From contig JAVCCG010000098.1 in assembly GCA_030765605.1 (NCBI GenBank), positions 30,835 through 94,834 of the forward strand: a stretch of 64,000 bases of DNA. Direction: 5' to 3'. The notes under the pieces were generated by a model that did not search any database, had not been told where the DNA came from, and was given only the letters and a program-made list of their open reading frames with translations. Every line of letters starts with the position of its first letter. The first letter of the stretch is position 1. This DNA is from Candidatus Alcyoniella australis (lineage in GTDB: Bacteria > Lernaellota > Lernaellaia > JAVCCG01 > Alcyoniellaceae). Positions 6,436 to 61,734 of this stretch are shown here, in pieces. Position numbers and translations under genes: made by a program.

Positions 6436-7553
6436 TGCGCTTCAGCCTCGGCGTTGCGGCCCTGGCGCTGGCATTGTCGCTGCTGCCGGTCGGGTGCGCG
6501 TCGCCGCCGGACGGGGGAGAGATGGACCGTACATTGACCGTGATCGACTACAACCTCTGGCACGGGCTCAATCCCGTAGGGCTGCTTAAGTTCGACGAGT
6601 TCGAGACTCCGGCCGAGCGTGAGCTGCGGCTCGAGGGATTCCTGGCCCAGGCGCGGGCCCTACAGCCGGACCTGATCTTTCTGCAGGAGGTCAACCCGGT
6701 GCCGGGCCTCTCGGCGCGGATCGCCGACGAGCTGGGCATGCAGCGCGTGTTCCAGGTGGGCAACTCCGGAATCAAGATCGGTTCTCTGGGGCCGCCGATC
6801 AACCTGCGCTCGGGCCTGGCGATCTTGGCCGCCCCACAGTTGCATCTTGAGAAGCTCGACGGCTGCAAACTCTCGGGATCGACCGGGCGTTGCGGCCCGT
6901 GGCTCTCGATCCAGACCGGGGAGTTCCGCTACGCGCTGGTCGCCCGCGTCGAGATCAACGGCCGCGAACTGATGCTGATCAACACCCATCTGCACCACGG
7001 GATGGAGATCGACCAGCAGGTGCGGCAGGGGTTGGATGAGCTGGTCGATAAAGGAACGATCACGCGCGAGCAGGCCGACGCTGCGCTGGCCGAGGTGGCC
7101 CTGGCCTCGCAGCGCAGGCGTAGCGAGATCGAGCGCGCCTTGGACTGCGCCGCGGACGCCGGTCTCGACCAGTCCACGCCCGTACTGTTTGCCGGCGACT
7201 TCAACGCCTCGCCCGATGCCCCCGAGCTCACGTGGCTGAAAAGCCATCTGGGCTTCGCCTCGGTCACTGACGATAGCGACCCGCAGAACCTGCTTTACAC
7301 CTGGGACCCCCAGCGCAATTCCAACACGCTGTTCGTCAGCGATTTCAAGCCGCCCAGCGACGGCGAGGGGCTGATCTTCGCGCACCTGGGGCAGACGCTG
7401 GTTCATCAGCGACGGCGGCTGGACTACATCTTCACGCGCTCCACCGGCTCGCTGCTCGAGCCGCGCGAGTCCGGCCTGTTCGCCGACCAGCCGCGCAACG
7501 GCACGATGAGCTCGGACCACTTCGGCGTGTTCGCCAAATTCGAGATCAAATAA
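6435..7553 (+). CDS. Endonuclease/exonuclease/phosphatase (EEP, sphingomyelinase-like) family lipoprotein
   Basis: Start taken at ATG 6435 (overlaps upstream stop; gives MRFSLGVAALALALSLLPVGC lipobox). EEP motifs NLWHG, IFLQEVN, GDFNA, SDHFGV. The 6237 start in the ORF track only adds an Arg-rich extension inside the previous gene. Confidence 0.8.
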   Translation: MRFSLGVAALALALSLLPVGCASPPDGGEMDRTLTVIDYNLWHGLNPVGLLKFDEFETPAERELRLEGFLAQARALQPDLIFLQEVNPVPGLSARIADELGMQRVFQVGNSGIKIGSLGPPINLRSGLAILAAPQLHLEKLDGCKLSGSTGRCGPWLSIQTGEFRYALVARVEINGRELMLINTHLHHGMEIDQQVRQGLDELVDKGTITREQADAALAEVALASQRRRSEIERALDCAADAGLDQSTPVLFAGDFNASPDAPELTWLKSHLGFASVTDDSDPQNLLYTWDPQRNSNTLFVSDFKPPSDGEGLIFAHLGQTLVHQRRRLDYIFTRSTGSLLEPRESGLFADQPRNGTMSSDHFGVFAKFEIK

Positions 7554-7554
7554 A

Positions 7555-7620
7555 GCAGCTATGAGCTGCACCAAAACTCGCAAGCGAACCTTGCGCGTTG
7601 CTCTACGATATTTTCCGCGT
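7555..7620 (+). repeat. Copy of the 67-bp intergenic repeat family (array orientation), abutting the EEP stop codon
   Basis: GCAGCT-atg-AGCTGC hairpin then ACCAAAACTCGC ... ACGATATTTTCCGCGTCG, colinear with array unit (GCTGCCACAAAACTCGCG ... ACGATCCACTCCGCGGCG). Confidence 0.6.
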
Positions 7621-7680
7621 CGCGGAGTGGATCGTAGGTAACCGACAAACGTAATACACGAGATTTGTGCCGACTCAGAG
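7621..7680 (-). repeat. Inverted copy of the 67-bp repeat family, head-to-head with the previous copy
   Basis: CGCGGAGTGGATCGT...ACACGAGATTTGTGCC matches reverse complement of array unit (CGCGGAGTGGATCGTTG...ACGCGAGTTTTGTGGC); junction CCGCG-T-CGCGG is palindromic. Confidence 0.6.
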
Positions 7681-7754
7681 CCGCTCGCGTTGGATGGGGC
7701 GGCAAGGTGAATTGTTTTAATTAATCTCGAGCCAATACCCCGCGAGCCTTCACC

Positions 7755-7778
7755 TAATAATGTTATTCAACATTATTA
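7755..7778. promoter_or_regulatory. Perfect 10-4-10 AT-rich palindrome, Fur/Zur-box-like, orphan (between convergent gene ends)
   Basis: TAATAATGTT-attc-AACATTATTA; lies in an AT-rich island in a 395-bp spacer between the 3' ends of the EEP gene and tatA. Confidence 0.4.
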
Positions 7779-7796
7779 TCCCTCCCCGATGCTTAG

Positions 7797-7874
7797 TCGC
7801 GGGGTGGATCGTTGCATCAAGACCGGCGTACTGCGCGAGCCTTGCCGCGGCTCCAAGCCGCCTCCAAGGTGCCC
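7797..7874 (-). repeat. Inverted copy of the 67-bp repeat family
   Basis: GTCGCGGGGTGGATCGTTGC...GCGCGAGCCTTGCC-GCGGC-tccaa-GCCGC-CTCCAAGGTGCC; hairpin 7847-7861. Confidence 0.65.
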
Positions 7875-7920
7875 AAACAAAAACCGCACCTGCTGGGATG
7901 TCGGTCCCGGCCGGTGCGGT
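7875..7920 (-). terminator. Rho-independent terminator of tatA
   Basis: On minus strand ACCGCACC...GGTGCGGT stem (7913-7920 / 7883-7890) followed by TTTTGTTTGGG. Confidence 0.7.
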
Positions 7921-7947
7921 CTTGGTCGCAGGTGCGTCAGGCGGCGG

Positions 7948-8142
7948 CTACTCTGCCTTGTCTTCGTCTTTGAGCTGTTTATCTTTAGGCGTCACGTCGA
8001 TCTCGTCATGGTTGGCCTTGCGAAACTCGCGGATGCCCTTGCCCAGGCCGGCGCCGATCTCAGGCAGCTTGCCCACGCCAAAGATGATCAGCACGATGGC
8101 CATAATAATTACCAGCTCGCCCATGCCCAAATTGCCGATCAT
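7948..8142 (-). CDS. tatA: Twin-arginine translocase subunit TatA/E
   Basis: 64 aa; [43 protein letters not shown] signature; AAGGAG 7 nt upstream. Confidence 0.95.
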
Positions 8143-8173
8143 GGTCTTTCTCCTTGTTTAGTCGGCCGACACT

Positions 8174-8311
8174 CTAACGGAAAAACCCGGCCAGCAGCCC
8201 CCAGCCGAGGATATCGTCGGCCGTGGCGAAACATAACAATAGCGTATAGACGATCATCGCCGCAAGAGCGAGTTTGCCGGTCCGGCCGCCCTCTTGATCG
8301 CGCTGTTCCAT
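8174..8311 (-). CDS. 45-aa single-TM micro-protein immediately upstream of tatA
   Basis: ATG 8311 preceded by AAGGAGG (8 nt spacer); MEQRDQEGGRTGKLALAAMIVYTLLLCFATADDILGWGLLAGFFR has one hydrophobic helix; the longer 8407 start in the ORF track overlaps the upstream gene. Confidence 0.55.
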   Translation of the reverse strand: MEQRDQEGGRTGKLALAAMIVYTLLLCFATADDILGWGLLAGFFR

Positions 8312-8342: not shown

Positions 8343-10418
8343 TCAGCCGCAGCACGCGTCGTCATCGTCGTCGTCGCCCGCACTATCGTCATCGTCGTCG
8401 TCGTCATCGCCGCCGGTGATCACGATGTAGTCGGCTTTGGTTTCGACGTTCTCACCGGCCACGCCCAGGCCGGTGAGTGAAACCGTGTAGATGCCCGGCG
8501 TATTGAAGATGTAGGTCGGCGAGTTCTCGGTGGACGAGCCGCCGTCGCCGAACTCCCAGTACTGCCCCAGCAGGCAGCCGGGCAGCACATCGATCGCTGA
8601 GCTGAAGTTTACGCTCAGCGGCGCGGCTCCCTGGGTCACGTCGGCGCTGAAGTCGACGACCGGCGCCTCGCAGGGGACCGTAACCACTACCGCGTCGAGA
8701 TCGAAGCCCGGGGTCGCTCCGCTGCCGCCGCTGCCGTCGTCCTCGATCTTGATGTAGCGCGCCTCGGACAGGCCCGAGGGCGAGATGTCGAGGTCGGTAG
8801 TGCCGTCGGCCACGCCGATCACCTGCCAGGGCCCCAGCCAATGCTCGGCAACGAAGATCGCAGCTCCCTCCGGGTCGGAGCCGGACTCGACGATCTGCAC
8901 GTCGGCCCCGGCCGAATCGACGATCGGCGTACCAAGGCCCATGTCGAGCACCACGTAGCCGTCGTTGCCGATGGAGTAGGCATAGCCATCGGGCGCACCC
9001 AGGGCGGTCAGGGGCATCGAGGGATTGGCGTGGGTCCAGCCATCGGCGCGGTCGTTGGCGATCACGCGCATGGCGTAATATTCGGGAGTCGCCGCCGGCA
9101 CCAGCTCAAAGCTGAGTTCCTCTTTGGATCCGTCGAACACCTGCGCGGAGGATGTGGCCGGGGCGTAGCCGTTGGCCCAGGCGACCACGGTCCAATCACC
9201 GGCGCGGATGTAGCGGTGGAAGTCGCCAAGATCCGAATCGCTGTAGAACGCCCAACCCTCCTGGGCGATGCGCAACATGGCGAACAGCGGCGCGCCCGAG
9301 GCCGCGTCGACCACCGTGCCGCTCAGCCCCTGGTCGAGCACATCGAGCAGCGCCAGTTGGCCGCTGAGATTGCGCGCATTGTAGCTCGGAATCTGCGAGT
9401 ACGACGGCGTCTTGGTGCTGCTGACCTCGACGATGAACGCCATGGCGCCGCCGGCCAGATAGTAGGTCTCCTCGCTGATGCCCTGCACCTCGTACCAATC
9501 GTAGCCGTTGGTGATCGGATAGCTCGCGGCGCTGCCGTAGACAGATGCAAGCCCGCTCAGCGTGGTGTCGTCCGGCGCGAGTTGGGGTTGGGAATCCATC
9601 GGGTAGTTGATCGTCTCTGCACCCGAATGATAGTTCGCGCCGAAGGTCAGGGCGTGCTCGAGGAAGAACTCGGTCACCGCCTGCAATTCGGGTTCGCTGC
9701 CGCCGACTCCCGAGCCCTCGTAGAAGATCGGGAACGAACGGTTCAGATCTTTGCCGTGGGAGTTGTAGCGTGTGCTCGCGGTGCAGCCGTCGGGGTTGAG
9801 CATCGGCATGATGTAGATCTCGAACCCGTCGACCAGCTGCTGTACGCTCGCGTCGCTGTCGTACGTGCTGAGCAGATGGTTGGCGAGGTTGATCACCGCC
9901 TCAAAGCTGCTCCATTCGTCGCCGTGGATTCCGCCATCGAACCAGACCTCGGGCTCGGGCTCGTTGGTATCGGCGTTGTCGCTGATTTTAATCACCCACA
10001 ACTCGCGGCCATCCACGCTCTGGCCGATGCTGAAAAGCTGCGTCAGCGCGGGGTAGCCGTCGGCCAGGTTGCCAAGCAGCGCGGCCATCGAGCTGTAGTC
10101 GTAATACCCGTCGGGCTTGGGCGAGGAGAGCTGCTGCGGTGTTTGCAGCACCTCGATCTCGTAGCCCAGGGCCTCGAGCTCGTCGATCTCCTGCGGATTG
10201 AGAAACGCCTTGAGCCCGAACTCGTCGGCCCCGTCGACGATCAGTCCCATGTGCGTTAAGGCGTCGCGCTCCGCGCGGTCCTGGGTCAGGATCAGACAGT
10301 ACGACTCGTTGGCGTAATCGCGAATCTCGTCCTGGGCCGCAACCACCGTACAAGCCAGCAGCACCGCCAGGGCGCTTGATATCGCGAGAGTCAAAGCTGA
10401 GGCTCGTTTACGTCTCAT
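8343..10418 (-). CDS. Secreted M14 zinc carboxypeptidase with C-terminal PKD domain and poly-Asp/ACCG tail
   Basis: 691 aa; signal peptide; HXXE zinc motif GGIHGDEWSS and HSGAETINYP; PKD-like FSADVTQGAAPLSVNF...WEFGDGGSS...GIYTVSLT; ends GGDDDDDDDDSAGDDDDDDACCG; AGAGGAA SD. Confidence 0.85.
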   Translation of the reverse strand: MRRKRASALTLAISSALAVLLACTVVAAQDEIRDYANESYCLILTQDRAERDALTHMGLIVDGADEFGLKAFLNPQEIDELEALGYEIEVLQTPQQLSSPKPDGYYDYSSMAALLGNLADGYPALTQLFSIGQSVDGRELWVIKISDNADTNEPEPEVWFDGGIHGDEWSSFEAVINLANHLLSTYDSDASVQQLVDGFEIYIMPMLNPDGCTASTRYNSHGKDLNRSFPIFYEGSGVGGSEPELQAVTEFFLEHALTFGANYHSGAETINYPMDSQPQLAPDDTTLSGLASVYGSAASYPITNGYDWYEVQGISEETYYLAGGAMAFIVEVSSTKTPSYSQIPSYNARNLSGQLALLDVLDQGLSGTVVDAASGAPLFAMLRIAQEGWAFYSDSDLGDFHRYIRAGDWTVVAWANGYAPATSSAQVFDGSKEELSFELVPAATPEYYAMRVIANDRADGWTHANPSMPLTALGAPDGYAYSIGNDGYVVLDMGLGTPIVDSAGADVQIVESGSDPEGAAIFVAEHWLGPWQVIGVADGTTDLDISPSGLSEARYIKIEDDGSGGSGATPGFDLDAVVVTVPCEAPVVDFSADVTQGAAPLSVNFSSAIDVLPGCLLGQYWEFGDGGSSTENSPTYIFNTPGIYTVSLTGLGVAGENVETKADYIVITGGDDDDDDDDSAGDDDDDDACCG
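8358..8408 (-). repeat. GAC/GAT trinucleotide tract encoding D6-GAS-D8 at the M14 C-terminus
   Basis: gtcgtcatcgtcgtcgtc...atcgtcatcgtcgtcgtcgtcatc read directly. Confidence 0.9.
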
Positions 10419-10433
10419 GGTTGGTTCCTCTAT

Positions 10434-10505
10434 GCGGCTTTGAGCCGTTGCAAAACTCGCGTATCTCTATGGTCGTTTACTAAAAATCCACTCCGCGTCG
10501 CGCAG
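10434..10505 (+). repeat. Solo copy of the 67-bp intergenic repeat family
   Basis: GCGGC-tttga-GCCGT then TGCAAAACTCGCGTATCTCTATGGTCGTTTACTAAAAATCCACTCCGCGTCG, about 80% identical to array unit 4 over the post-loop part. Confidence 0.7.
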
Positions 10506-10611
10506 AGCATCATTGAACAATGACTACTGTCCGCTCGCGTGCTTTGCCGCAGCGCCAAGCTGCCTGATTGATAAATCATCATGAATAATCCGGACTGGGG
10601 TTTCAAGCGAG

Positions 10612-13850: not shown

Positions 13851-14777
13851 TTAGCTTCTGCGAGCCAACTTGCTGACGAAGGCCGGGATCAGGATAACGA
13901 GCATCACGTAGCCCAGTAACATTTCTATATTCACTGCTGTGGCCGCGACGTTTGTGTGGGGAACTAGGTTGCTGGAACCAATGGGTACGAAAGTGAAAAA
14001 GCTGTAGTGCATGACGCTGAATCGGGTCCAAGGCAAAGGCTCAGCATCAAATGAGCCAGGCGGCAGAAAGTCATAGAATAAGAATCCGAAGCCAATAGGT
14101 AGGACAATACATAAGCCAAGCAAGAGCCAGAGAAACCTCCCGCAGTCAGCGAATATCAGCCAGGGATAGTAGAGGACTTTTTCCCTCTTCGTCTCCTGTA
14201 GCTCTTCAAGATAATCCTGGTCCTGGGCAAAGCGCTTGAAACGCTGACTGCCGTAGCAACCCTCGACACGAATGCCTCTGCACCTCGTTTTTCGATTAAA
14301 AGTAACCCCAGCAACATTGGCTTTTTCCAGGTTCGCGAAGCCGAGGTAAGCGCCCTTGAGGTGTGACCCAATGAGGTCAGCTCCATCGAGGTGTGCCCCA
14401 TTTAGGAAAGCGCCCTTGAGATGCGCCCCAGAGAGGGCAGCGCCCTGGAGCTGCGCCCCCAAGAGTTTAGCTCCCTCGAGATGCGCCCCTACAAGGTTGG
14501 TTTTCTCGAGATGCGCCCCAATGAGGTAAGCGCCATTGAGGTGTGCCCTGCTGAAGTTAGCACCCTCGAGGTGTGCCTCAAAGAGGTTAGCGCCCTCGAG
14601 GTGTGCCTCGCTGAGGTCAGCGCCCTTGAGGTGTGCATCATTGAGGATAGCGCCCTTGAGGTGCGGAAACCATCTAGGGTTTTCCTTGCGAAGTTCGTTC
14701 CATTCCTTGACCCGGCTTTCCTGAAGCATGGCGATTGCTTCTTCTTTGGAAATCGGGGGCTGATATTTGTCGGTCAT
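13851..14777 (-). CDS. Pentapeptide-repeat protein fused to a 2-TM K-channel-like pore domain with degenerate filter
   Basis: About 24 A(D/N)LxG-type pentapeptides (LKGADLSEAHLEGANLFEAHLEGANF...); C-terminus TM1-(HYSFFTFVPIGSSNLVPHT)-TM2 resembles YFSxVTxTTVGYGDxxPxT pore loop. Confidence 0.8.
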   Translation of the reverse strand: MTDKYQPPISKEEAIAMLQESRVKEWNELRKENPRWFPHLKGAILNDAHLKGADLSEAHLEGANLFEAHLEGANFSRAHLNGAYLIGAHLEKTNLVGAHLEGAKLLGAQLQGAALSGAHLKGAFLNGAHLDGADLIGSHLKGAYLGFANLEKANVAGVTFNRKTRCRGIRVEGCYGSQRFKRFAQDQDYLEELQETKREKVLYYPWLIFADCGRFLWLLLGLCIVLPIGFGFLFYDFLPPGSFDAEPLPWTRFSVMHYSFFTFVPIGSSNLVPHTNVAATAVNIEMLLGYVMLVILIPAFVSKLARRS

Positions 14778-34552: not shown

Positions 34553-35334
34553 CTGCGCGTCTCCTTTCGCGCGTTGACGCGCAACGCAGTGCTCAGCAAT
34601 TTCAGCGGCCAGAGGCTCGTCAGCAAACGGTCGAGCCCCAGGTAGGCCCGCACGATCACTCCCGGCTCGCGCCCCAGCCCCAGGCGCGTGGGCAGGTTGC
34701 GCGGCAGCCAGTGATAAGACTCCACCAACTCCACCTTAAAACCATGTTCTCGCAACAGCCGCCCCACCCCGCGCCGCGAGTATAGCCGCTCGTGGGCAAT
34801 GCGGCCCAGCAGCCGCCCCAGCGCCTCGGTCCACGACAGACGGTTGGGCAGATGGTAGATCGCCAGCAGGCCGCCGGGACGCAGAATGCGTTGGATCTCG
34901 TCAAGGGAGGCCATGTCGTCGGGCACGTGCTCGAGCACGCCGCAGCTGAGCACCGCGTCGAACGAGCCATCGGCGAACGGCAGCGCGGAATCGTCGGCTC
35001 CGCCGATTAGGGGACGCGTGCTTTGATCACCGAACAGCCAGGGCCAGGCTTGATAGTAAGTCGGCCGCACGTCGAAGCTCGTGACCTTGAGCCCGGCCGC
35101 GTCGAGCAAAAAGCTGTTGTGTCCCCAGCCCGATCCCCAGTCGAGCACGCTCGCGCCCGGCGGCAGCTGCGCGGCCAGCTCGCGCGCGATTTGCACGTAC
35201 TGCGCCGCGCCCAGAGCCGAGCCGATGTGAATGCTGCGCCGGTGGCGCGTCAGCTCGTCGACCTCCAACCGCCGGCCGTACTCGATAATACGACTCAGGG
35301 CCGTATCGAGCCGCGGGGTGAGATCGTCGCTCAT
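34549..35334 (-). CDS. Class-I SAM-dependent methyltransferase
   Basis: VLDWGSGWGHNS motif I, FDAVLSCGVLEHV, LRPGGLL. Confidence 0.85.
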   Translation of the reverse strand: MSDDLTPRLDTALSRIIEYGRRLEVDELTRHRRSIHIGSALGAAQYVQIARELAAQLPPGASVLDWGSGWGHNSFLLDAAGLKVTSFDVRPTYYQAWPWLFGDQSTRPLIGGADDSALPFADGSFDAVLSCGVLEHVPDDMASLDEIQRILRPGGLLAIYHLPNRLSWTEALGRLLGRIAHERLYSRRGVGRLLREHGFKVELVESYHWLPRNLPTRLGLGREPGVIVRAYLGLDRLLTSLWPLKLLSTALRVNARKETRS

Positions 35335-37055
35335 TGGACGATCGCCATCAGCAACACGGCCAGGAGGAAGTGGGCCTCAATCAACGCCTGGGTCCAGATT
35401 CCGTTGACCTTGCGCGGTAAGCGCATCAGCAGCGCCTCGATTCCGACCAACGCGCCGATCAGCCCCGCGGCCCAGGGCAGCCAACCCAGCAGCGCGCAAC
35501 AGATCAGCCACAGGCCCAGGCCCAGGGCGGCCAGTCGCGCGGCGCGCACGCTGGCGTCGATGCCGAAGATCGTCGGCACGCTCTCGCGGCCTGCGAGCCG
35601 ATCCGAGGCGAAGTCGGCCAAATCGAACAGCAGCGAGCGCAGCCAGGTCGCGGCAAGCAGCGCCAGAGTCGCGGCCAGGCAGGGTGCGGCCGCGGGGCGC
35701 GCGTACCAGGCAATGGGCCCGGCGGTGATGATCGTCCAGCCCAAAGCGACCGAGACGTTCTTGCTCGCGGCCAGGTCCTTGAGCCGCGCGGCGCCCAGTC
35801 GCGTTGCCGCCACTTTTGGAAGCAGCGGCACCGAGTAGACGAACCCGAGCAACGCCGAGACGAGCACGATCAGCGCCGGGACCGCGCCCAGCGCCGTTGC
35901 CGCAAATGCCGAGCCGACTCCCGCGGCCAGACACAGCGGCCACAACGCCAGCCGGTAGCGCCTCATGAAGCGTTGGCGTTGGGGCTCGTCGCGGTAGCGG
36001 TCCGCGGCAAAGTCGGTCAGGCGGTTGAGCAGATGGATGAACATCACGAACAGCGCCGGGACCAACAACGCCGGCAGATACAGCGCACGGTCGACGGCGA
36101 GCAGGAAGAACGCGGCCAGCGCGGCCGCGGCCAGGGCGGATGATAATCCGGCGAGCACCAGGCCGCGCAGCCCGGCGAAAAGATACAGGCTCAGCCGCCG
36201 CAGGCCCGTGGCCTCGGCGTAGGCCGCGCGTTCGCCCAGGCGCTGGACCACCTGTTCGATAACCCACGAGGGCGTGCTTGCGCCCGCGGTAATTCCCAGC
36301 CGTTGCACGCCCTCCAGGTCCAGCTCGTCGACCTGCTGCGGCTGTTCGATTTGCACGGTGCGCACGATCCCCCGGCCGATCTGCGTCAGCCGCGAGGTGT
36401 TGCCGCTGTTGCTGCCGCCGACCACCAACAGCAGGTCGACCTTGGCGGCCAACTCGCGTACTTCCTTCTGCCGCGCGCGCGTGGCGTCGCAGATCGTGTT
36501 GCGCACCTCGGGCTCGCCGGTTGCCAGCTCGCGGGCGCGATCCACCACCTCGCGGAACAACTCGGGGTCCTGGGTAGTCTGAGCCACCAGGCAGACCGGC
36601 TCGGGCAGCGGGTCGGGCAGCTCCTGCGGCCCGCCGATCACCAGGCCGCGCCCGCCGGCATAGCCCAGCAGCGCCCGCACCTCAGGGTGGTCGCGGTCCC
36701 CGAGGATGATCACGTGCTTTCCCTCGGCCGCCTGCTTGGCGATCACCTTGTGCACTGCCTTGACCTTGGGACAGGTGGCGTCGAGGATCCGCAACCCGCG
36801 CTCTCGCAGTTCCTGCTCTTGCCGCGGTCCGATGCCGTGACTGCGGATCACCGCGGTGCCACCCTGGATCTGCGCCGCGTCCGCCGCGCACAAAACGTTG
36901 CGCAGTTCGAGCAGCTCGACCACCTGCGGGTTATGCACCAGCGGACCGACAGTGGCCATCTGCCCGGCGCCGGGCCGGACCGCCTCGAGCACCATGTCCA
37001 CGGCGCGGCGCACTCCCATGCAGAAGCCCGCGGTCCGGGCGAGGATAATCTCCAT
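35331..37055 (-). CDS. ispH: Fusion: IspH (HMBPP reductase) + C-terminal UbiA-superfamily prenyltransferase membrane domain
   Basis: N-terminal ~285 aa with three IspH cluster Cys (GFCMGV, DATCPKV, NTICDAT); C-terminal ~285 aa with ~8 TM helices and Asp-rich motifs NRLTDFAADRY (NxxxDxxxD) and FDLADFASDRLAG (DxxDxxxD). Confidence 0.85.
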   Translation of the reverse strand: MEIILARTAGFCMGVRRAVDMVLEAVRPGAGQMATVGPLVHNPQVVELLELRNVLCAADAAQIQGGTAVIRSHGIGPRQEQELRERGLRILDATCPKVKAVHKVIAKQAAEGKHVIILGDRDHPEVRALLGYAGGRGLVIGGPQELPDPLPEPVCLVAQTTQDPELFREVVDRARELATGEPEVRNTICDATRARQKEVRELAAKVDLLLVVGGSNSGNTSRLTQIGRGIVRTVQIEQPQQVDELDLEGVQRLGITAGASTPSWVIEQVVQRLGERAAYAEATGLRRLSLYLFAGLRGLVLAGLSSALAAAALAAFFLLAVDRALYLPALLVPALFVMFIHLLNRLTDFAADRYRDEPQRQRFMRRYRLALWPLCLAAGVGSAFAATALGAVPALIVLVSALLGFVYSVPLLPKVAATRLGAARLKDLAASKNVSVALGWTIITAGPIAWYARPAAAPCLAATLALLAATWLRSLLFDLADFASDRLAGRESVPTIFGIDASVRAARLAALGLGLWLICCALLGWLPWAAGLIGALVGIEALLMRLPRKVNGIWTQALIEAHFLLAVLLMAIVQ

Positions 37056-46310: not shown

Positions 46311-46763
46311 ATGAAGTCGCCGCTGGAACAGTTCAGAGAGTTCGCCGCTTGCGAAGGCCTGCGCCTGACCCGCTCGCGCGAGGACGTTGTTCGGGCGGCC
46401 TTCGCGCTGGACGACCATTTCAACACCGATGATTTATTGCGTGTGCTGCGTCGACGGCGCTTGCACGCCTCGCGGGTTACGGTCTACCGCACGCTGCCGC
46501 TGCTAATCCGCGCCGGGCTGATCCGCAAGGCCCTGCCCTGCGCGCAGAACGAGCAGCAGCTCTACGAACACGTTTGGGGCTTGCCGCACCACGATCACCT
46601 GGTGTGCGAGGTCTGCGGCCGGATCGTCGAGTTCGCGGACCAGCGCATCGAGCGCGCCCAGCGCCGGGTCGCCGAGGAATACGGCTTTGCACTGAATCGC
46701 CACACCCTGGAGCTGCGCGGCGTATGCGGCGATTGCAGCGCCAATCCCGAGGTAGAGCAATAG
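46311..46763 (+). CDS. fur: Fur-family transcriptional regulator
   Basis: ATG 46311 with GAGGAA SD; wHTH region, HHDHLVCEVCG and CGDC metal sites. Confidence 0.85.
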   Translation: MKSPLEQFREFAACEGLRLTRSREDVVRAAFALDDHFNTDDLLRVLRRRRLHASRVTVYRTLPLLIRAGLIRKALPCAQNEQQLYEHVWGLPHHDHLVCEVCGRIVEFADQRIERAQRRVAEEYGFALNRHTLELRGVCGDCSANPEVEQ

Positions 46764-47504
46764 ATGTACAGCATCGACGACGCAACCAACGCTTTCAAAT
46801 CGTACCTGGCCGGCACGGGCAAGCCCTTCGGCCTTGACCGCGAGGCGGTGCTGCTGGCGGCCCTGGACACCCACGAGCACTTTACCCACGGCCGGCTTGT
46901 GGACCGACTGCGCGAGGCCAACCCCGAGATCATGCCCGATCTGGTGCAGATGGCTCTGGGCGAGATGGTGCGCGCGGGCTTAATTCGCAAGGTGTTTTTC
47001 GGCGAGGGACCTGTCTACTACGAACACGTCTACGGCCATTTGCACCACGACCACTTGGTCTGCGTGCGCTGCGGAGAGCTGATCGAGTTCCGCTCTGACG
47101 TGATCGAGGCTGAGCAGCGCCGGATCGCCGAACAGCATGGGTTCAGGATTTTGCGTCACAGCCTGCAGATCATGGGCGTCTGCGAACGATGCAGCGCCGA
47201 GCCGCTGTCCCAGCTGCCGGAATTCGCAATCGAGGAGCAGCCGGACCCGGACCGCGTGCTGCCCTTGAGCCTGGTGCGCGACGGCCTACGCGCCCAGGTG
47301 GTGCAGATCGAGGGCGGCAGCAACCTCAAGCAGCGACTGACCTCCCTGGGTTTGACCCCCGGCGACGAGATCGAGGTCTGCCACAACACCTTTGCCGGAC
47401 CGTTCGTGATCAAGGTCAAGGGCTCGCGCATCGCCCTGGGTCGCGGGATGGTCGATCGAATCCAGGTACGGCGCATCCTCGAACCTGCAGAGGACGACGC
47501 ATGA
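46764..47504 (+). CDS. Fur-family regulator fused to a C-terminal FeoA (SH3-like) domain
   Basis: aa 1-150 Fur-like (HHDHLVCVRCG ... CERC); aa ~170-240 FeoA-like (LPLSLVRDGLRAQVVQIEGGSNLKQRLTSLGLTPGDEIEV...IKVKGSRIALGRGMVDRIQV). Confidence 0.75.
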   Translation: MYSIDDATNAFKSYLAGTGKPFGLDREAVLLAALDTHEHFTHGRLVDRLREANPEIMPDLVQMALGEMVRAGLIRKVFFGEGPVYYEHVYGHLHHDHLVCVRCGELIEFRSDVIEAEQRRIAEQHGFRILRHSLQIMGVCERCSAEPLSQLPEFAIEEQPDPDRVLPLSLVRDGLRAQVVQIEGGSNLKQRLTSLGLTPGDEIEVCHNTFAGPFVIKVKGSRIALGRGMVDRIQVRRILEPAEDDA

Positions 47505-47783: not shown

Positions 47784-49961
47784 GTGAAACGCATCACTAT
47801 CGCCCTGGCGGGTAATCCAAACTCGGGCAAGACCACGATCTTCAACGCGCTGACCGGCGCGCGGCAGAAGGTCGGCAACTGGGGCGGCGTGACCGTCGAG
47901 CGCAAGCAGGGACACCTGGAGTTCGAGGGGTACGAGGTCACGGTTGTCGATCTGCCGGGCACATACTCGCTCACCGCTTACTCGATCGAGGAGCTGGTCG
48001 CCCGCAACTACATCGTGGACGAGCGACCCGACGTGGTGGTGGACATCGTCGACGCGGGCAATCTGGAGCGCAACCTGTACCTGACCACCCAGCTTGTGGA
48101 GCTGAGCTGCCCGCTGGTGATCGCGCTGAACATGATGGACGTGGCCGAGCAAAAGGGGCTGAAGATCGCCATCGGTCGGCTCAGCGAGATCTTCGGCGCG
48201 CCGCTGGTGCCCACGGTCGGCTCACGGGAAAAGGGACTGGAAAGCCTGCTGCGAGCCTGCATCGAAGTCGTCGAGGGGCGCAACGACGCAATACGCCCAG
48301 TGCGCATCCCCTACGGCTCCGAGGTCGAGGGTCACCTGGCCGAGCTGACACAGATGTTGCCGACCAGCCAAATCGAGCGCTGCTACGCTGCGGAGCGCTG
48401 GATGGCGATCAAACTGCTCGAGAACGACCGCCGGGCGATCGAGAACATCGCCGAGGCCGAAAATAGCGAGAAGCTGCTGCTGACGATTGAGCGCCTGCGC
48501 GAGCATCTGGTCTCGCTTTACGGCGACGACCCGGAATTGCTGTTCGCCGAACGACGCTACGGCTTCATCGCCGGCGCGCTTAAGGAGACGCTGACCGAAA
48601 CGCTGATCGACCGCGTCTCGGTCTCCGAGCAGATCGACCGCGTGCTGACCAACAGGCTGTTCGGCCTGCCGCTGTTCGCGCTGATGGTCTGGGCGATGTT
48701 CCAGTTCACGTTCACGGTCGGCGCCTACCCGATGGACTGGCTGGACATCGGCGTTTCCTGGCTCGGCCGAAGCGTGGGCGCGCTGCTTCCCGCGGGACTG
48801 CTGCGCGGGCTGATCGTCGAGGGCGTGATCGGCGGCGTGGGCTCGGTACTGGTGTTCATGCCCAACATCCTGCTGCTGTTTTTGTGCATCAGCTTCCTCG
48901 AGGACTCGGGCTACATGGCGCGCGCCGCTTTTTTGATGGACCGCGTGATGCACCTGCTGGGTCTGCACGGCAAGAGTTTTATCCCGTTGCTGATGGGCTT
49001 TGGCTGCACGGTTCCGGCGGTGATGGCCACGCGGACTCTGGAAAGCGAACGCGACCGGATTCTGACGATCATGATCAATCCGCTGATGTCGTGCTCTGCG
49101 CGGCTGCCGGTCTACGTGCTGCTCGCCGGCGCGTTCTTCCCCCCGGCGCGTGCCGGGACCGTGATCTTCTCGATCTATTTGCTTGGCGCGCTGCTGGCGG
49201 TGCTGGTCGGCAGGCTGTTCTCCAAAACAATCCTGCGCGGTCAGGCCGCGCCGTTCGTGATGGAGCTGCCGCCCTACCGCCTGCCCACGTTCAAAACCAC
49301 GGCGATTCACATGTGGGAGCGCTCCAAGATCTTCGTGCGCAAGATGGGCGGCGTGATCCTTGTGGGCAGCATTGTGATTTGGTTTCTTGGCGCGTTCCCG
49401 GTGCACGGACCGCGGCACCAAGAGCTGACCGGGCGGATCGATGCCCACGGCCTGAGCTACGGGCTGTACCAGGCCGGTGCCAACTCCAAACAGCGGTTGA
49501 CCATCGAGCTTTACCACACGGAGCACGTGGCCCAATTACAGCAAACACTGGAGGCCGATCGCATCGCTGAGAGCTACATCGGCCGCATCGGCCGGACCAT
49601 CGAGCCGATCTTCGCGCCGCTTGGACTGGATTGGCGCGCGGCCGTGGCCGTGCTCACCGGGTTCGTGGCCAAGGAGATTGTGGTCTCGACCCTGGGCGTG
49701 CTGATGCAGGTCGACGACGAGCAGCAGCCGGGCAACGCGGGGTTGATCGTCGCCCTGCGCAATACCGGCATGACCCCGCTGATCGCCTACGCTTTTATGG
49801 CGTTCATTTTGATCTATACGCCGTGCCTGGCCACGGTGGCCGCGATCCGCCGCGAGACCAACTCGCGCAAGTGGGCGGCGTTCAGCGTGGCCTACTCGTT
49901 CGTGCTGGCCTGGGTCGTGGCCTTTTCCATCAAGTCGGTCGGCGGGTTGCTCGGATTTTAG
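47784..49961 (+). CDS. feoB: Ferrous iron transporter FeoB
   Basis: 725 aa; GNPNSGKTTIFNALTG G1, DLPGTYS, NMMD; C-terminal polytopic membrane domain. Confidence 0.95.
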   Translation: MKRITIALAGNPNSGKTTIFNALTGARQKVGNWGGVTVERKQGHLEFEGYEVTVVDLPGTYSLTAYSIEELVARNYIVDERPDVVVDIVDAGNLERNLYLTTQLVELSCPLVIALNMMDVAEQKGLKIAIGRLSEIFGAPLVPTVGSREKGLESLLRACIEVVEGRNDAIRPVRIPYGSEVEGHLAELTQMLPTSQIERCYAAERWMAIKLLENDRRAIENIAEAENSEKLLLTIERLREHLVSLYGDDPELLFAERRYGFIAGALKETLTETLIDRVSVSEQIDRVLTNRLFGLPLFALMVWAMFQFTFTVGAYPMDWLDIGVSWLGRSVGALLPAGLLRGLIVEGVIGGVGSVLVFMPNILLLFLCISFLEDSGYMARAAFLMDRVMHLLGLHGKSFIPLLMGFGCTVPAVMATRTLESERDRILTIMINPLMSCSARLPVYVLLAGAFFPPARAGTVIFSIYLLGALLAVLVGRLFSKTILRGQAAPFVMELPPYRLPTFKTTAIHMWERSKIFVRKMGGVILVGSIVIWFLGAFPVHGPRHQELTGRIDAHGLSYGLYQAGANSKQRLTIELYHTEHVAQLQQTLEADRIAESYIGRIGRTIEPIFAPLGLDWRAAVAVLTGFVAKEIVVSTLGVLMQVDDEQQPGNAGLIVALRNTGMTPLIAYAFMAFILIYTPCLATVAAIRRETNSRKWAAFSVAYSFVLAWVVAFSIKSVGGLLGF

Positions 49962-54117: not shown

Positions 54118-55023
54118 TTACTTTCCGCAGTTTGACTGGGCGGCGATGGAGGTGATCATCCCCTTCTCCGCTCCGCTGATGATCCCTGCCTTCTTGCACT
54201 CATTGGTGTAGTGGGCCACGCAGGACTCGTACTCACCGTGGTTGGCCCAATCCCAGTCGCAGGGGCACATTGCCTCGATCGGGCAGTCGCCGGGATACAC
54301 CGGATTGTCATCATCATCATCATCATCGTCGTCGTCGTCGTCGTCGCCGCCAATGTCGTCGTCATCATCGTCGTCGGCATCGTCGTCATCGTCGTCGTCG
54401 CCCAGGTCGTCGTCATCGTCGGCGTCGTCATCGTCGTCGCCGTCATCGTCATCGTCGGCGTCGTCATCGTCGTCGCCGCCCAGGTCGTCGTCATCGTCAT
54501 CGTCGTCGCCCGCGACAGCCCCGTCTCCGGGCCCGCAACATAGAGGAGCCATCGGATCCTCGTCAAACTCGGCGACGTCAGGGGCGTTGTCGTCAAGGGC
54601 ATAGATATAGTTGGAGCTGTTGAGCTGCGAGGTGCTGCAGATCACCCAGTCATGCGGCTGGTATCCGTCTATTCCCTCGGGAAAGGCGTTGACCAGGGTG
54701 CCCGATCCGCCCTCACCGTCCTCGTCGATGTAGGGGCTGATGATCTCGTATTCACCTGCAATCGAATCCTTGCCCGTGCGGCTGTACATATCATCCAACT
54801 CGGCCGTGGTCGGCGGCATGCCATGGTCCTCCTGGAAGATAACCGCCAGGGACTGCAGATTGCGAACGTCCATCATCACACTTGCGTTCTCGGCGTCTCC
54901 GCGCACTGAGGCGTAAATCGGGATGGCGATCGCCGACAAAATGCCGATCACTGCGACCACGATCATCATCTCGATCAGAGAGAATCCGTTCTCTGCTCTT
55001 GTGTGCATTGCTTTTCTTTCCAT
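54118..55023 (-). CDS. Type IV pilin/pseudopilin-like protein with poly-Asp linker and Cys-rich C-terminal module
   Basis: ATG 55023 with GGAGGGG SD; prepilin motif G-FSLIEMMIVVAVIGILSAIAIP; 68-aa tract with 55 Asp; terminal 62 aa with 6 Cys (CPIEAMCPCDWDWANHGEYESCVAHYTNEC...NCGK). Confidence 0.85.
   Translation of the reverse strand: MERKAMHTRAENGFSLIEMMIVVAVIGILSAIAIPIYASVRGDAENASVMMDVRNLQSLAVIFQEDHGMPPTTAELDDMYSRTGKDSIAGEYEIISPYIDEDGEGGSGTLVNAFPEGIDGYQPHDWVICSTSQLNSSNYIYALDDNAPDVAEFDEDPMAPLCCGPGDGAVAGDDDDDDDDLGGDDDDDADDDDDGDDDDDADDDDDLGDDDDDDDADDDDDDDIGGDDDDDDDDDDDDDNPVYPGDCPIEAMCPCDWDWANHGEYESCVAHYTNECKKAGIISGAEKGMITSIAAQSNCGK
54307..54510 (-). repeat. 204-nt GAC/GAT trinucleotide tract (poly-Asp coding)
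   Basis: Runs of gtc/atc codons interrupted by single gcc/ggc/cag/aat codons; D8-LGG-D5-A-D5-G-D5-A-D5-LG-D7-A-D7-IGG-D13. Confidence 0.9.
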
Positions 55024-55295
55024 GACAGCCCCTCCATTTTGAGCGCCAGCGAATAAGAGATATTCACGAAGCATGCCAAGGGCTTCGCTAAATATAAACG
55101 ACCTGATTACAATGAGTTGAATGCCATAAGGGATGAAGTTCCGTAATTGCTCAAGTTGGTTATAAAACTTTTTGAAACCAACTGTTTACAATACGTAACA
55201 GCGACCCCGCACAATTGGTCGCCAAACAGCGGCGCCAGCCCGGAATTGGGGCGGTCCGCGTTTAGCCCGATTTTATCTTTGGAAATAGGTGGTCG

Positions 55296-55320
55296 GTGCG
55301 GCGGCTGTGAGCCGCCGCAC
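55296..55320 (-). terminator. GC hairpin downstream of the second pilin-like gene (terminator candidate, no U tract)
   Basis: GTGCGGCGGC-tgtga-GCCGCCGCAC, 18 nt past the stop at 55338. Confidence 0.4.
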
Positions 55321-55337
55321 TCGAAGAATAATGCGGG

Positions 55338-55847
55338 CTATAAAAACTGGTCGATATTCAGTGGATCCTGCCCGTCGGGCACGCGCACCAGCGGGTTGTC
55401 GTCCATGCCGAAGATGTATTCGTATTTCGGAAGTTCGCGGGTGCTGAAGATCAGGAAGAACTTGGGCGCGTATTCCGATGGAGCAGGCAGGCCGTTGGCG
55501 CCGCCCACACCGGGATTGCCGTCGTCCCAACCGTCCCAGTCGTTGCCGTGGCCGTTGTTGTCGTCTTCACTGTTGATCATGATCATGTATTCGCCCACGA
55601 TCGAGTCCTTGCCCGACCTACGATACATTTCGTCGAGCTGATCGAGCGTCGGCGGCGTCCCCTTGTCCTCCATGTAGATCACGGCCAGCGACTGGAGGTT
55701 GCGGATATCGCTCACAACTTCAATGAGTTCGGCATCGGCCCGCACTCCCCTGTAGGTGGGAATTGCGATTGCAGACAGAATACCGATAATACCGATCACA
55801 ATCACAAGCTCGATTAGGGTGAATCCTGCTTTCGCTCGAGCATCCAT
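55338..55847 (-). CDS. Type IV pilin/pseudopilin-like protein (169 aa), paralogue of 54118-55023 core
   Basis: ATG 55847 with GAGGAGGG SD gives MDARAKAG-FTLIELVIVIGIIGILSAIAIP; shares ...NLQSLAVI..ED.G.PPT...LD.MY.R.GKDSI.GEY.I with neighbour. Confidence 0.85.
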   Translation of the reverse strand: MDARAKAGFTLIELVIVIGIIGILSAIAIPTYRGVRADAELIEVVSDIRNLQSLAVIYMEDKGTPPTLDQLDEMYRRSGKDSIVGEYMIMINSEDDNNGHGNDWDGWDDGNPGVGGANGLPAPSEYAPKFFLIFSTRELPKYEYIFGMDDNPLVRVPDGQDPLNIDQFL

Positions 55848-56106
55848 TTTATCGCCCTCCTCGCCTTTGGATCGGCTCCGTCGCTCCAATTGCGGTGTTT
55901 CATGCTACCTCTCCGTCTTGATGAGATACATTCCCCATGCCACAATGGAGATAAATCTTGATTGCTTTATCGTTTCAACTGATTGATGTTAGAGCTGCAC
56001 AACATGTGGGGGCGATCGCTGCATAACTTATTCGCCAACAGGCTTACAAAAGGTAAGTATTTAGCCCGTAATACTAGTATTAAACTTGTCTTTGTTTACG
56101 CGATTG

Positions 56107-58863: not shown

Positions 58864-58995
58864 GACCAAACTAAACAGCAACCCGCATGCCGAACTGTGG
58901 ACAAGACGCTGTATCTACTTGATATTAGGCTAATCTTATTTTTTTAGTGTTCTTTGGCCCAATCCAGCCCAAGCAAGCTGCTTCACACCTAGCGG

Positions 58996-59021
58996 CCCAA
59001 TTTGACCCAATCTTCCCCAAT
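58996..59021. promoter_or_regulatory. Three CCCAAT direct repeats phased at exactly 10 bp upstream of the FHA gene
   Basis: CCCAAT at 58996, 59006, 59016 (a fourth at 58958) in an AT-rich stretch 130-160 bp upstream of the FHA start. Confidence 0.3.
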
Positions 59022-59036
59022 CCGAATCTTAATTTT

Positions 59037-59460
59037 CCACCCCGCACCCGGCACCTTGGAGGTGCCCGCATGACTCGCGTAGTTCGATGGTTGTTAGGCA
59101 ACGATCCACCCCGCGACGACACCTTTGAGGTGCCACAAAACTCGCGTAGCTCGCTGGTCGTAATGCCACGATCCACTCCGCGGCGGCACCTTGGAGGTGC
59201 CCACAAAACTCGCGTAGTTCGATGGTTGTTAGGCAACGATCCACTCCGCGGCGACACCTTTGAGGTGCCACAAAACTCGCGTAGCTCGATGGTTGTTAGG
59301 CAACGATCCACTCCGCGGCGACACCTTGGAGCTGCCACAAAACTCGCGTAGTTCGATGGTTGTTAGGCAACGATCCACTCCGCGGCGACACCTTGGAGCT
59401 GCCCGCAAAACTCGCGGATTACGCTGGTAGTTGACCAACGTGCCACTCCGCGACCAAAGA
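59037..59460 (+). repeat. Tandem array: 6 full + 1 truncated copies of a 67-69-bp non-coding unit
   Basis: Units begin CCAC[CT]CCGCG at 59037, 59106, 59173, 59241, 59308, 59375, 59443; consensus CCACTCCGCGGCGACACCTTGGAGGTGCCACAAAACTCGCGTAGTTCGATGGTTGTTAGGCAACGAT. Confidence 0.95.
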
Positions 59461-59475
59461 TCGGGGAGGTGGGGT

Positions 59476-59530
59476 AAAGATCGTAGAAACGATCTTTGTT
59501 TGTAGGCTCGCCGAGGCGGCTTGGAGCCGC

Positions 59531-59532
<2 letters not shown>
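59476..59532 (-). terminator. Two hairpins at the 3' end of the poly-Asp lipoprotein gene (terminator candidates)
   Basis: AGGCGGC-ttgga-GCCGCCT (59514-59532, overlaps stop codon) and AAAGATCGT-agaa-ACGATCTTT (59476-59497); no long U tract. Confidence 0.4.
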
Positions 59533-61282
<1,750 letters not shown>

Positions 61283-61474
61283 ACGCGTCTCCCAATGGAA
61301 GGCTGGGGCCAATAGGATTAGCATGCCACGAACGGCCGGTCAAAAGCCCGTCATCGCATTTGGAATTGTTTTCGCGCTAGCCTGGATTATTTATGATGGT
61401 GCGTAGCGAGGAGTACAAGATGCCGCAAGAACAAGGAAGCACTCCTAACTCAAAGGCCGACGAGGGTCTCTGCG

Positions 61475-61545
61475 ACGCGGGGAGGTTCGTTGGTCAACGA
61501 GAGGCGCGATACGCGAGCTTTGCGGGCGGCTCAAAGCCGCCTGCG
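61475..61545 (-). repeat. Solo inverted copy of the 67-bp repeat family
   Basis: Reverse complement reads AGGCGGC-tttga-GCCGCC-CGCAAAGCTCGCGTATCGCGCCTCTCGTTGACCAACGAACCTCCCCGCG, closest to array unit 6 (…CCCGCAAAACTCGCGGATTACGCTGGTAGTTGACCAACGTGCCACTCCGCG). Confidence 0.65.
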
Positions 61546-61734
61546 CAGGCGTACCAATTGAGGTACGTCGAGGACGGATCGGCGAGGATGACACAGTTAT
61601 TGCCAGCAGATTGTGCCCGCAGTAGAACCCTTATGAATAATCCCGGCTAGGCCGTTTGACACGGCGCAGGCCAGCCGGGATCATTCATTCAAGCTTCACA
61701 GGCCGGTATTTCCAGACAGTGGGAGGTGTGCACG

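Follow-up and report, generated by a model that had tools for sequence, protein, structure and literature searches.

Small intergenic hairpin repeats in Candidatus Alcyoniella australis that look like a previously unrecorded REP/BIME- or BOX-like family

A 64,000-nucleotide stretch of the Candidatus Alcyoniella australis genome (contig JAVCCG010000098.1, positions 30,835 to 94,834; hereafter the window, numbered from its first letter) carries a family of small, non-coding repeats, and the analysis described here confirms that this family is real, dispersed, and multi-copy. The window holds 12 full copies of a 67–79-nt unit, six in a tandem array at 59044–59459(+) and six dispersed, as well as two hairpin-only fragments. 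The window is ~92% coding (63% GC), and copies and fragments alike are intergenic; they are spread over five of the gaps between genes and take up ~1 kb of the 4.9 kb of non-coding DNA. The family looks like a previously unrecorded example of the small interspersed repeats known as REP/BIME, REPIN, BOX, or MITE-like elements. We consider it probable that these are lineage-specific, non-autonomous interspersed repeats, the folded hairpin and flank of which are recognized by a trans-acting enzyme, most likely a single-stranded DNA (ssDNA) transposase of the HUH/Y1 kind.

A profile seeded with the six array units and 10434(+) returned the array units with E values of 1e-19 to 4e-24. Its matches outside the seed were 7796–7862(−) (E 1e-11), 7618–7683(−) (3e-11), and 61473–61541(−) (8e-10), with weaker matches at 7555–7621(+) (E 0.0025) and 10497–10564(−) (E 0.009), and ~0.9 Mb of unrelated genomes, used as a negative control, gave no match better than E 1e-3. 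Independently of the profile, BLAST of the window against itself aligned 7549–7684 with 10569–10434 (69% over 136 nt, E 2.5e-8); it also paired 7781–7857 with 59469–59392. Tandem Repeats Finder placed the array at 59052–59452 with a period of 67, 5.9 copies, and 87% matches. When the 12 copies were used to build a covariance model and the window was scanned with filters off, only two further sites, both hairpin-only, rose above noise: 55293–55327 (21.8 bits, E 3e-4) and 59508–59544 (19.7 bits, E 1e-3). Hairpins of the form CTNNGAG with at least three flanking pairs number 20 in the window, compared with 8.5 ± 2.9 in Markov shuffles. An earlier, sequence-only reading of this DNA had listed dispersed copies and a head-to-head junction, CCGCG-T-CGCGG; every listed copy is present, as is the junction, at 7611–7621, but one inverted unit, 10492–10571(−), had been overlooked. 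The claim that all copies are intergenic holds with two qualifications, in that 7555(+) abuts a stop codon (7551–7553) and the hairpin at 59514–59532 overlaps the stop codon of the gene at 59531–61324(−).

The basic unit is ~67 nt long and consists of hairpin 1, a conserved flank, a second and weaker hairpin, and CCGCG. Hairpin 1 has the form G-G-C-N-N-C-T-[T-N-G]-A-G-N-N-G-C-C, and the flank behind it is (C)ACAAAACTCGCG; the parts that are kept are the apex C-T-[TNG]-A-G and the 3′ flank CAAAaCTCGCG. Almost no variation is seen in the inner C-G and T-A pairs or at loop positions 1 and 3; the middle loop base and the lower stem are variable. An array unit reads hairpin 1 GGCACC-TTKGA-GGTGCC, CACAAAACTCGCG-TAG, hairpin 2 GGTTGT-TAGGCA-ACGATC, and then CACTCCGCGGCG. 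Across the family, hairpin 2 takes the form GGTYGT-loop-ACGATC, stands 2–3 bases behind the flank (TAG in array units 1–5), and is followed by CACYCCGCG-RCG; in 9 of 12 copies it has a G·U pair at columns 50/65. The CGCG boxes, which never vary between copies, could pair with each other as helix 2. Ahead of hairpin 2, array units 1–5 have GTAG and unit 6 has GGAT; dispersed copies of the same type, type A, have GTAT, GCAG, or GTAT in that place. Type B units are distinguished by a CAGC/GCTG stem and one extra base behind the CGC box. The dispersed copies are ~70–78% identical to one another.

The loop had been described as TT[G/T]GA, which fits the array, where TTGGA occurs in four of six units and TTTGA in two. 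This description is too narrow, as TCTGA, TATGA, and TTGGC also occur in the window and TTAGA, TTCGA, and TTGAA occur in metagenome copies; what is conserved is the form TTNGA, closed by the invariant C-G and T-A pairs. Mismatches in the stem are a C·C in array units 5 and 6 and an outer-stem A·C in array units 2, 4, 5, and 6.

Units are found singly, in the head-to-tail array, and as A/inverted-B pairs, in which CCGCG-T-CGCG links the tail of each B to the tail of an A. One pair begins right behind the stop codon of a gene for an endonuclease/exonuclease/phosphatase-family protein, with a type-B unit at 7547–7626(+) (stem GCAGC/GCTGC, loop TATGA) meeting its inverted type-A partner at 7614–7692(−) (stem CGGC/GTCG with one G·U) through CCGCG-T-CGCGG; both units were found by profile, self-BLAST, and covariance model. 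The other pair consists of a type-A unit at 10426–10504(+) (stem GCGGC/GCCGT; profile seed and covariance model), the 5′ end of which lies ~16 nt upstream of the start codon of an M14 carboxypeptidase gene on the opposite strand, and the overlooked type-B unit at 10492–10571(−) (stem GCAGC/GCTGC, loop TTGGC; profile E 0.009 and the 136-nt collinear alignment), which is inverted relative to it with the joint CCGCG-T-CGCGC at 10493–10503. The two 136-nt composites, which point in opposite directions, are homologous and collinear, and the junction CCGCGTCGCGCAGAG is also present in at least two other metagenome contigs. Because the pairs are homologous end to end and the junction recurs, the pair appears to be the propagated unit, as in REPINs (PMC3116915). 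A further type-A unit, 61469–61548(−) (stem GGCGGC/GCCGCC; profile and covariance model), lies in the divergent region between a lipoprotein gene and folD. It continues on its 3′ side with CCGCG-T-CGCAGAG, the first bases of an inverted B that has been truncated, and then with unrelated sequence.

A third module, T, was recognized as sequence common to two loci: it stands behind the final unit of the array, at 59455–59513(+), and behind the unit 7791–7869(−), at 7740–7795(−). The T of the array consists of ATCGGGGAGG, an AT-rich hairpin, AAAGATCG-TAGAAA-CGATCTTT, at 59476–59497, and then TGTAGGCTCGCCG; the other T consists of ATCGGGGAGG, an AT-rich hairpin, TAATAATGTT/AACATTATTA, and then TGAAGGCTCGCGG. 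The hairpin sequence is thus wholly different between the two loci, and the end, T(G)WAGGCTCGCSG, is shared. Both clusters can be written as (A)n followed by T, with n = 1 at 7791–7869 and n = 6 in the array, and no common 5′ module was found ahead of (A)n-T in the window copies. Directly behind the array's T, at 59514–59532(+), stands a unit with hairpin 1 only, AGGCGGC-TTGGA-GCCGCCT (covariance model, 19.7 bits). In other contigs, T and its hairpin continue into AGCAAAGCTCGC..., a full unit, which indicates that 59514–59532 is a unit truncated where the neighboring gene ends and that T is an internal linker and not a terminus.

The modules A, B, and T form mosaic clusters that fill larger intergenic regions. 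Read on the minus strand, 7547–7876 runs half-hairpin, A, T, spacer, A, inverted B, and fills 330 of 394 intergenic bases. Its first A unit, 7791–7876(−) (stem GCGGC/GCCGC; profile and covariance model), shares its strand with the tatA terminator, lies immediately downstream of that terminator, and has the half hairpin GGGCACCTTGGAG ahead of it, an order of half-hairpin and hairpin that is also seen in another contig (run X3, aligned at 10434). Both the 136-nt composite and this 330-nt cluster are bounded by inverted copies of hairpin 1 and its flank. Short units without hairpin 2, and half hairpins, also occur. The sharing of T by two clusters, together with these short units, points to modularity of the BIME/BOX kind (PMC3049150).

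Two other hairpins had been put forward as related or coincidental. The one at 886–910, a GC stem followed by TTTATTTTTT directly after a thiolase gene, is coincidental: the T-run identifies it as an ordinary intrinsic terminator, and the covariance model did not match it in the window scan. The hairpin at 55296–55320 is at best a fragment; a possible hairpin-only relative, GTGCGGCGGC-TGTGA-GCCGCCGCAC, spans 55293–55327(+) between two pilin-like genes, and at 21.8 bits its claim to family membership is weak. Canonical terminators with T-runs are found after tatA (7880–7925, minus strand) as well as after the thiolase gene, so this organism uses U-tract terminators, unlike repeat hairpin 1, which is followed by CACAAAAC and has no U-tract in any full copy. 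An intrinsic terminator can accordingly be ruled out for hairpin 1.

Alignment of the copies confirmed the stem variants of hairpin 1 that the sequence-only reading had given. Across the 12 copies, columns 12/22 are A-U in eight and G-C in four, and columns 13/21 are G-C in five, C-G in four, G-U in one, and C·C in two (array units 5 and 6). Pairing is found in 92.9% of cells, compared with 25–51% when the partners are slid by 1–3 columns, and the covariation score is above all 500 shuffles. The sample, however, consists of 12 paralogous copies, six of which are tandem duplicates, and the control measures resistant to relatedness are not significant (three pairs changed on both sides, a number reached by 212 of 500 shuffles). 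The stem types coincide with subfamilies, CACC/GGTG in the array, CGGC/GCCG in dispersed A, and CAGC/GCTG in B. Because stem type tracks subfamily, the window samples only two to three independent double substitutions.

Further hairpins were obtained from the unaligned overhangs of Logan contigs from four salt-lake metagenome runs, aligned to single units. CCCGGC-TTTGA-GCCGGG, GGCGGC-TTAGA-GCCGCC, GCACC-TTTGA-GGTGC, and GGCACC-TTGGA-GGTGCC are fully paired, and GGCGGC-TTCGA-GCC... has an incomplete right arm. GGCATT-TTGGA-GGTGCC has two G·U pairs and GCGGC-TTGAA-GCTGC has one, and a single hairpin, AGTGC-TTGAA-GCT, is mismatched. With these stems added, four of six stem positions change as pairs while the apex stays TTNGA. 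The compensatory changes proposed for hairpin 1 are therefore upheld, with two lower-stem pairs covarying in the window and nearly all metagenome stems paired. The accompanying proposal that selection acts on structure rather than on primary sequence was overstated, as the stem is less conserved than either the apex CTTNGAG or the flank CAAAaCTCGCG; this pattern fits recognition of sequence plus shape by a protein.

We conclude that the covariation is real, in a sample that is small and structured by subfamily, and that it does not separate RNA from ssDNA as the folded species. The mispairs of hairpin 1 do not separate them either, since the A·C of four array units is a G·U on the other strand and the strand asymmetry of G·U against A·C cancels out. 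Selection for pairing is likewise not separated from palindrome-templated correction, as template switching inside a hairpin can produce covariation in DNA palindromes even where selection plays no part. Covarying palindromes are a property of mobile REP/REPIN elements too (PMC3116915).

The window copies are part of a larger population. DNA runs that contain the window sequence come from salt-lake metagenomes and one marine metagenome. In Logan, the unit core (59136–59155) has a word depth of ~204 in runs X1 and X3, compared with 4–5 for single-copy flanks, and of 55–109 in runs X2 and X4; in the salt-lake metagenome contigs, it stands at ~40 times single-copy depth. Depth is ~25 for the B unit at 10493–10565 and ~25–30 for module T in run X1, each against 4 for single-copy sequence, so T is itself multi-copy. 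Many metagenome contigs carry copies with different flanks. The window copies explain only part of the depth, which corresponds, as an order of magnitude, to tens of copies per genome equivalent, with the proviso that these are k-mer depths from metagenomes to which related organisms may contribute. The repeats are not an assembly artifact, as an independent ENA contig (832 bp) is 100% identical to 7465–8296, three copies included, and the two array edges are each matched at 100% identity by Logan contigs of independent runs. The unit joints seen in Logan contigs probably come from other loci.

Sequence relatives are few. The closest phosphofructokinase is 76% identical and lies on a 1.9-kb contig without the element, with the next at ~60% in several phyla; the M14 peptidase has no homologue above 34% identity, and a homologue search with the pilin-like protein returned no paralogues from the same genome. 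A search of a genome collection with the pattern CAAANCTCGCG-N(20-34)-CCWCYCCGCG gave at least 120 chance matches in unrelated taxa, none of which fit the unit profile, and a tighter unit pattern gave two chance matches in JGI metagenomes and none in viral contigs. BLAST against plasmids and phages gave no match. Rfam gave none at gathering thresholds and, under permissive settings, only chance-level hits to CRISPR-DR26 (E 2.1), RcsR1 (E 6.9), and snoU82P (E 0.21). By sequence, these searches gave no sign that the repeats are remnants of a known mobile element, which the sequence-only reading had named as one finding that would overturn it, although the kind of element is known.

The genes around the repeats are ordinary chromosomal ones, encoding the endonuclease/exonuclease/phosphatase-family protein, TatA, the M14 carboxypeptidase, two DUF6263 proteins, an FHA-GGDEF protein, a poly-Asp lipoprotein, and FolD. 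When orientation relative to these neighbors was mapped, no consistent relation to transcription emerged. The copies 7555(+), 7862(−), and 10564(−) are sense-oriented just downstream of genes, 10434(+) is antisense just upstream of a start codon, 61541(−) lies in a divergent promoter region, and the array is antisense between two co-directional genes. Copies adjoin gene starts and gene ends, in convergent, tandem, and divergent gene pairs and in both orientations, which fits insertion and not a single cis-regulatory role. No conserved promoter was found upstream of the dispersed copies, and no direct repeats of the target-site duplication type flank the A/inverted-B pairs.

These properties invite comparison with several known systems. 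E. coli BIMEs combine REPs of the Y and Z types with linker motifs into mosaics, and their protein partners are IHF, gyrase, and Pol I. The window family is similar in having two subtypes inverted about a fixed junction, linker motifs between units, and intergenic clusters of variable length; it differs in that its array is a head-to-tail run of one subtype, whereas BIMEs alternate orientation. REP/REPIN elements are extragenic hairpins that occur as inverted doublets and tandem arrays, show frequent compensatory stem changes, and make no target-site duplications, and their RAYT transposase is encoded by a single-copy gene elsewhere in the genome (PMC3116915, PMC3337134). The likeness to the short repetitive extragenic palindromes (REPs) of Pseudomonas and Enterobacteria extends to high copy number, singlets, inverted doublets, tandem arrays, compensatory stems, and the lack of target-site duplications. 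The window unit, however, is longer (~67 nt), with two hairpins and conserved single-stranded boxes, its pairs join arms of different subtypes, A and B, and do not form a convincing long hairpin, and it has no sequence similarity to anything searched. BOX elements of Streptococcus have the structure boxA-(boxB)n-boxC, with a variable number of the internal module (PMC3049150). The window family similarly varies an internal module (n = 1, n = 6) ahead of T, has parts predicted to be stem-loops, and carries no transposase of its own, but no shared 5′ module was found, its T is a linker, no target-site duplications of the kind made by BOX are visible, and both host, which is GC-rich, and sequence are unrelated. 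Bacterial MITEs include Correia, ERIC, RUP, and Nezha (PMC3049150). The window elements are small, non-coding, and intergenic as well, with inverted ends of hairpin 1 and flank that act like terminal inverted repeats; unlike MITEs, they lack a target-site duplication, are not AT-rich, and have no known parent insertion sequence with matching ends. The family is therefore not demonstrably a member of REP/REPIN, BIME, or BOX.

Other classes fit less well. Because units abut at a period of 67 without spacers, a CRISPR array can be ruled out, as can a CsrB/RsmZ-type sponge with CsrA sites, the loop being TTNGA with any N and not GGA. By inspection only, no motifs matching integron attC or iterons were seen.

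In the mechanism that we favor, the hairpin and flank (CACAAAACTCGCG) would be recognized and cleaved by a protein whose gene lies elsewhere in the genome, most likely an HUH/Y1 ssDNA transposase of the RAYT or IS200/IS605 type. Having bound the hairpin as folded ssDNA, this enzyme would move the A/inverted-B composite, or make further copies of it, and leave no target-site duplications. Arrays could then grow by slippage or unequal recombination, and selection would purge insertions into genes. Stem pairing might be kept because unfolded copies would no longer be recognized, possibly with a contribution from self-correction of the palindrome by template switching. Several observations weigh against this proposal. 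A Pfam scan of the ~50 open reading frames (ORFs) in the window found no Y1_Tnp or other transposase/RAYT domain, and the GTAG/GTGG tetranucleotide of REP/REPIN elements is not kept, GTAG being found only in array units 1–5. The dispersed copies, at ~70–78% identity, are more diverged than active REPIN populations. The low-coverage runs X5–X9 showed no empty site or presence/absence polymorphism, and a slightly divergent strain in run X9 retains the pair at 7541–7691. When folded as ssDNA, the A/inverted-B pairs, the arms of which are of different subtypes, reach z scores of only −0.8 to −2.5 relative to shuffles. Finally, the G·U pair common in hairpin 2 fits RNA at least as well as ssDNA.

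This last point bears on an alternative in which the repeats are functional RNA modules: the hairpin and CACAAAACUCGCG, co-transcribed in untranslated regions, would either be bound by an RNA-binding protein or stop exonucleases, with effects on mRNA stability or translation of the neighboring genes, and the six-unit array would be an independent transcript with several hairpins that acts as a decoy or sponge for the protein. Tolerance of G·U on the sense strand (columns 50/65 in hairpin 2; columns 13/21 in 7683(−); GGCATT/GGTGCC in metagenomes) and covariation of the stem around a fixed apical sequence would both be expected of such modules, and REP and BOX are known to affect mRNA (PMC3049150). 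Three copies, 7555(+), 7862(−), and 10564(−), are also suitably placed, being sense-oriented just downstream of genes, and the hairpin of T is followed by GTTTGT. A sigma-70-like match, TGGACA-17-GATATT at 58898–58926(+), aims into the array, although it is a bare consensus match, of which one was found and 0.3 expected. The occurrence of both orientations is harder to accommodate, since the array and 10434(+) are antisense to both of their flanking genes. Hairpin 1 has no net strand asymmetry, its TTNGA loop offers no GGA (CsrA-type) site, no RNA run containing the region was found, and Rfam gave no match. We regard RNA modules as unlikely, if deserving of attention. A specific version, in which a multi-site decoy RNA started at 58898–58926 would titrate a protein that binds the hairpin and CACAAAACUCGCG (as RNA or ssDNA) off dispersed copies in untranslated regions, a Csr/Rsm-like network built from a domesticated repeat, seems to us very improbable.

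There is a small chance that the sites act as double-stranded DNA, read by a nucleoid-associated protein, gyrase, or a regulator through the CGCG boxes (CTCGCG ... CCGCG), with the hairpins being palindromes only incidentally, as dimer sites. CTCGCG and CCGCG are indeed the columns that vary least, the junction CCGCG-T-CGCGG is palindromic, and E. coli BIMEs bind IHF and gyrase. A dimer site, however, would be expected to keep the sequence of both half-sites, whereas here the arms change together with pairing kept, and a six-unit array with copies at ~40 genome equivalents exceeds the needs of a regulon. We attach a similarly low probability to a view without constraint, in which subfamily structure and quasi-palindrome template switching produce the covariation and the repeats are decaying, functionless relics. 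Each stem type does mark one subfamily, the hybrid stem CACC/GCTG in array units 5 and 6 resembles an intermediate that either escaped correction or was converted, the dispersed copies have diverged to 70–78% identity, and the relatedness-resistant controls are not significant. Yet of the nine further hairpins, complete or nearly so, that other contigs supplied, eight are fully paired, with four different stem sequences, and neutral decay to that level of identity would have left the apex and 3′ flank far less conserved than they are.

Other features were observed near the repeats. The short motif CCCAAT(C/T) is present some five times at 58960–59030, in the stretch that separates the start of the FHA-GGDEF gene (58881) from the array. 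On the minus strand, all three frames are open across the array (58925–59927), giving spurious ORFs of 80–232 amino acids, and the plus strand has an ORF of 134 amino acids; the array-spanning ORF had no match among 1.8 billion representative proteins. Just upstream of folD, at 61634–61688, lies a near-perfect inverted repeat with ~19-bp arms, TGAATAATCCCGGCTAGGCC ... GGCCAGCCGGGATCATTCA, the first 12 bases of which (TGAATAATCC-GG) recur beside a B unit at 10585–10606. The adjacent pilin-like genes 54118–55074 and 55338–55889 are paralogous (69% nucleotide identity over ~250 bp) and encode a prepilin-type N-terminal methylation motif; databases contain only a few distant homologues, none above 49% identity. 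Plus-strand (TCG)n-like tracts at 8356–8415, 54307–54515, and 61091–61218 encode poly-aspartate in three minus-strand secreted or lipoprotein genes, at the C terminus of the M14 carboxypeptidase, in the pilin-like 54118–55074, and just after the lipobox cysteine of 59531–61324, respectively; they cross-match in self-BLAST and draw many unrelated metagenome contigs.

Farther from the repeats, the gene at 13851–14777 contains a 30-bp tandem repeat (10.7 copies, 14343–14663) that encodes pentapeptide repeats fused to an Ion_trans_2 domain. Two apparent fusions are present, IspH (LytB) with a UbiA-type prenyltransferase domain (35331–37055) and a Fur-family regulator with a FeoA domain (46764–47504), the latter directly upstream of feoB (47784–49961). 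A direct repeat of ~115 bp (70% identity) has one copy upstream of the fur-feoA gene (46562–46675) and one inside it (47018–47131).

If the transposase reading is correct, this family would be a REP/BIME/BOX-like system from a lineage with almost no sequenced relatives. Repeats of this sort break assemblies and confuse gene callers, and because its length can vary, the unit array could serve as a marker for strain typing. The repeats also point to a trans-acting enzyme that might be traced through the gene that units flank, and a hairpin with a fixed apex, a free stem, and a conserved flank would offer a clean model of recognition. A new kind of biology would be at hand only if the decoy-RNA reading were true.

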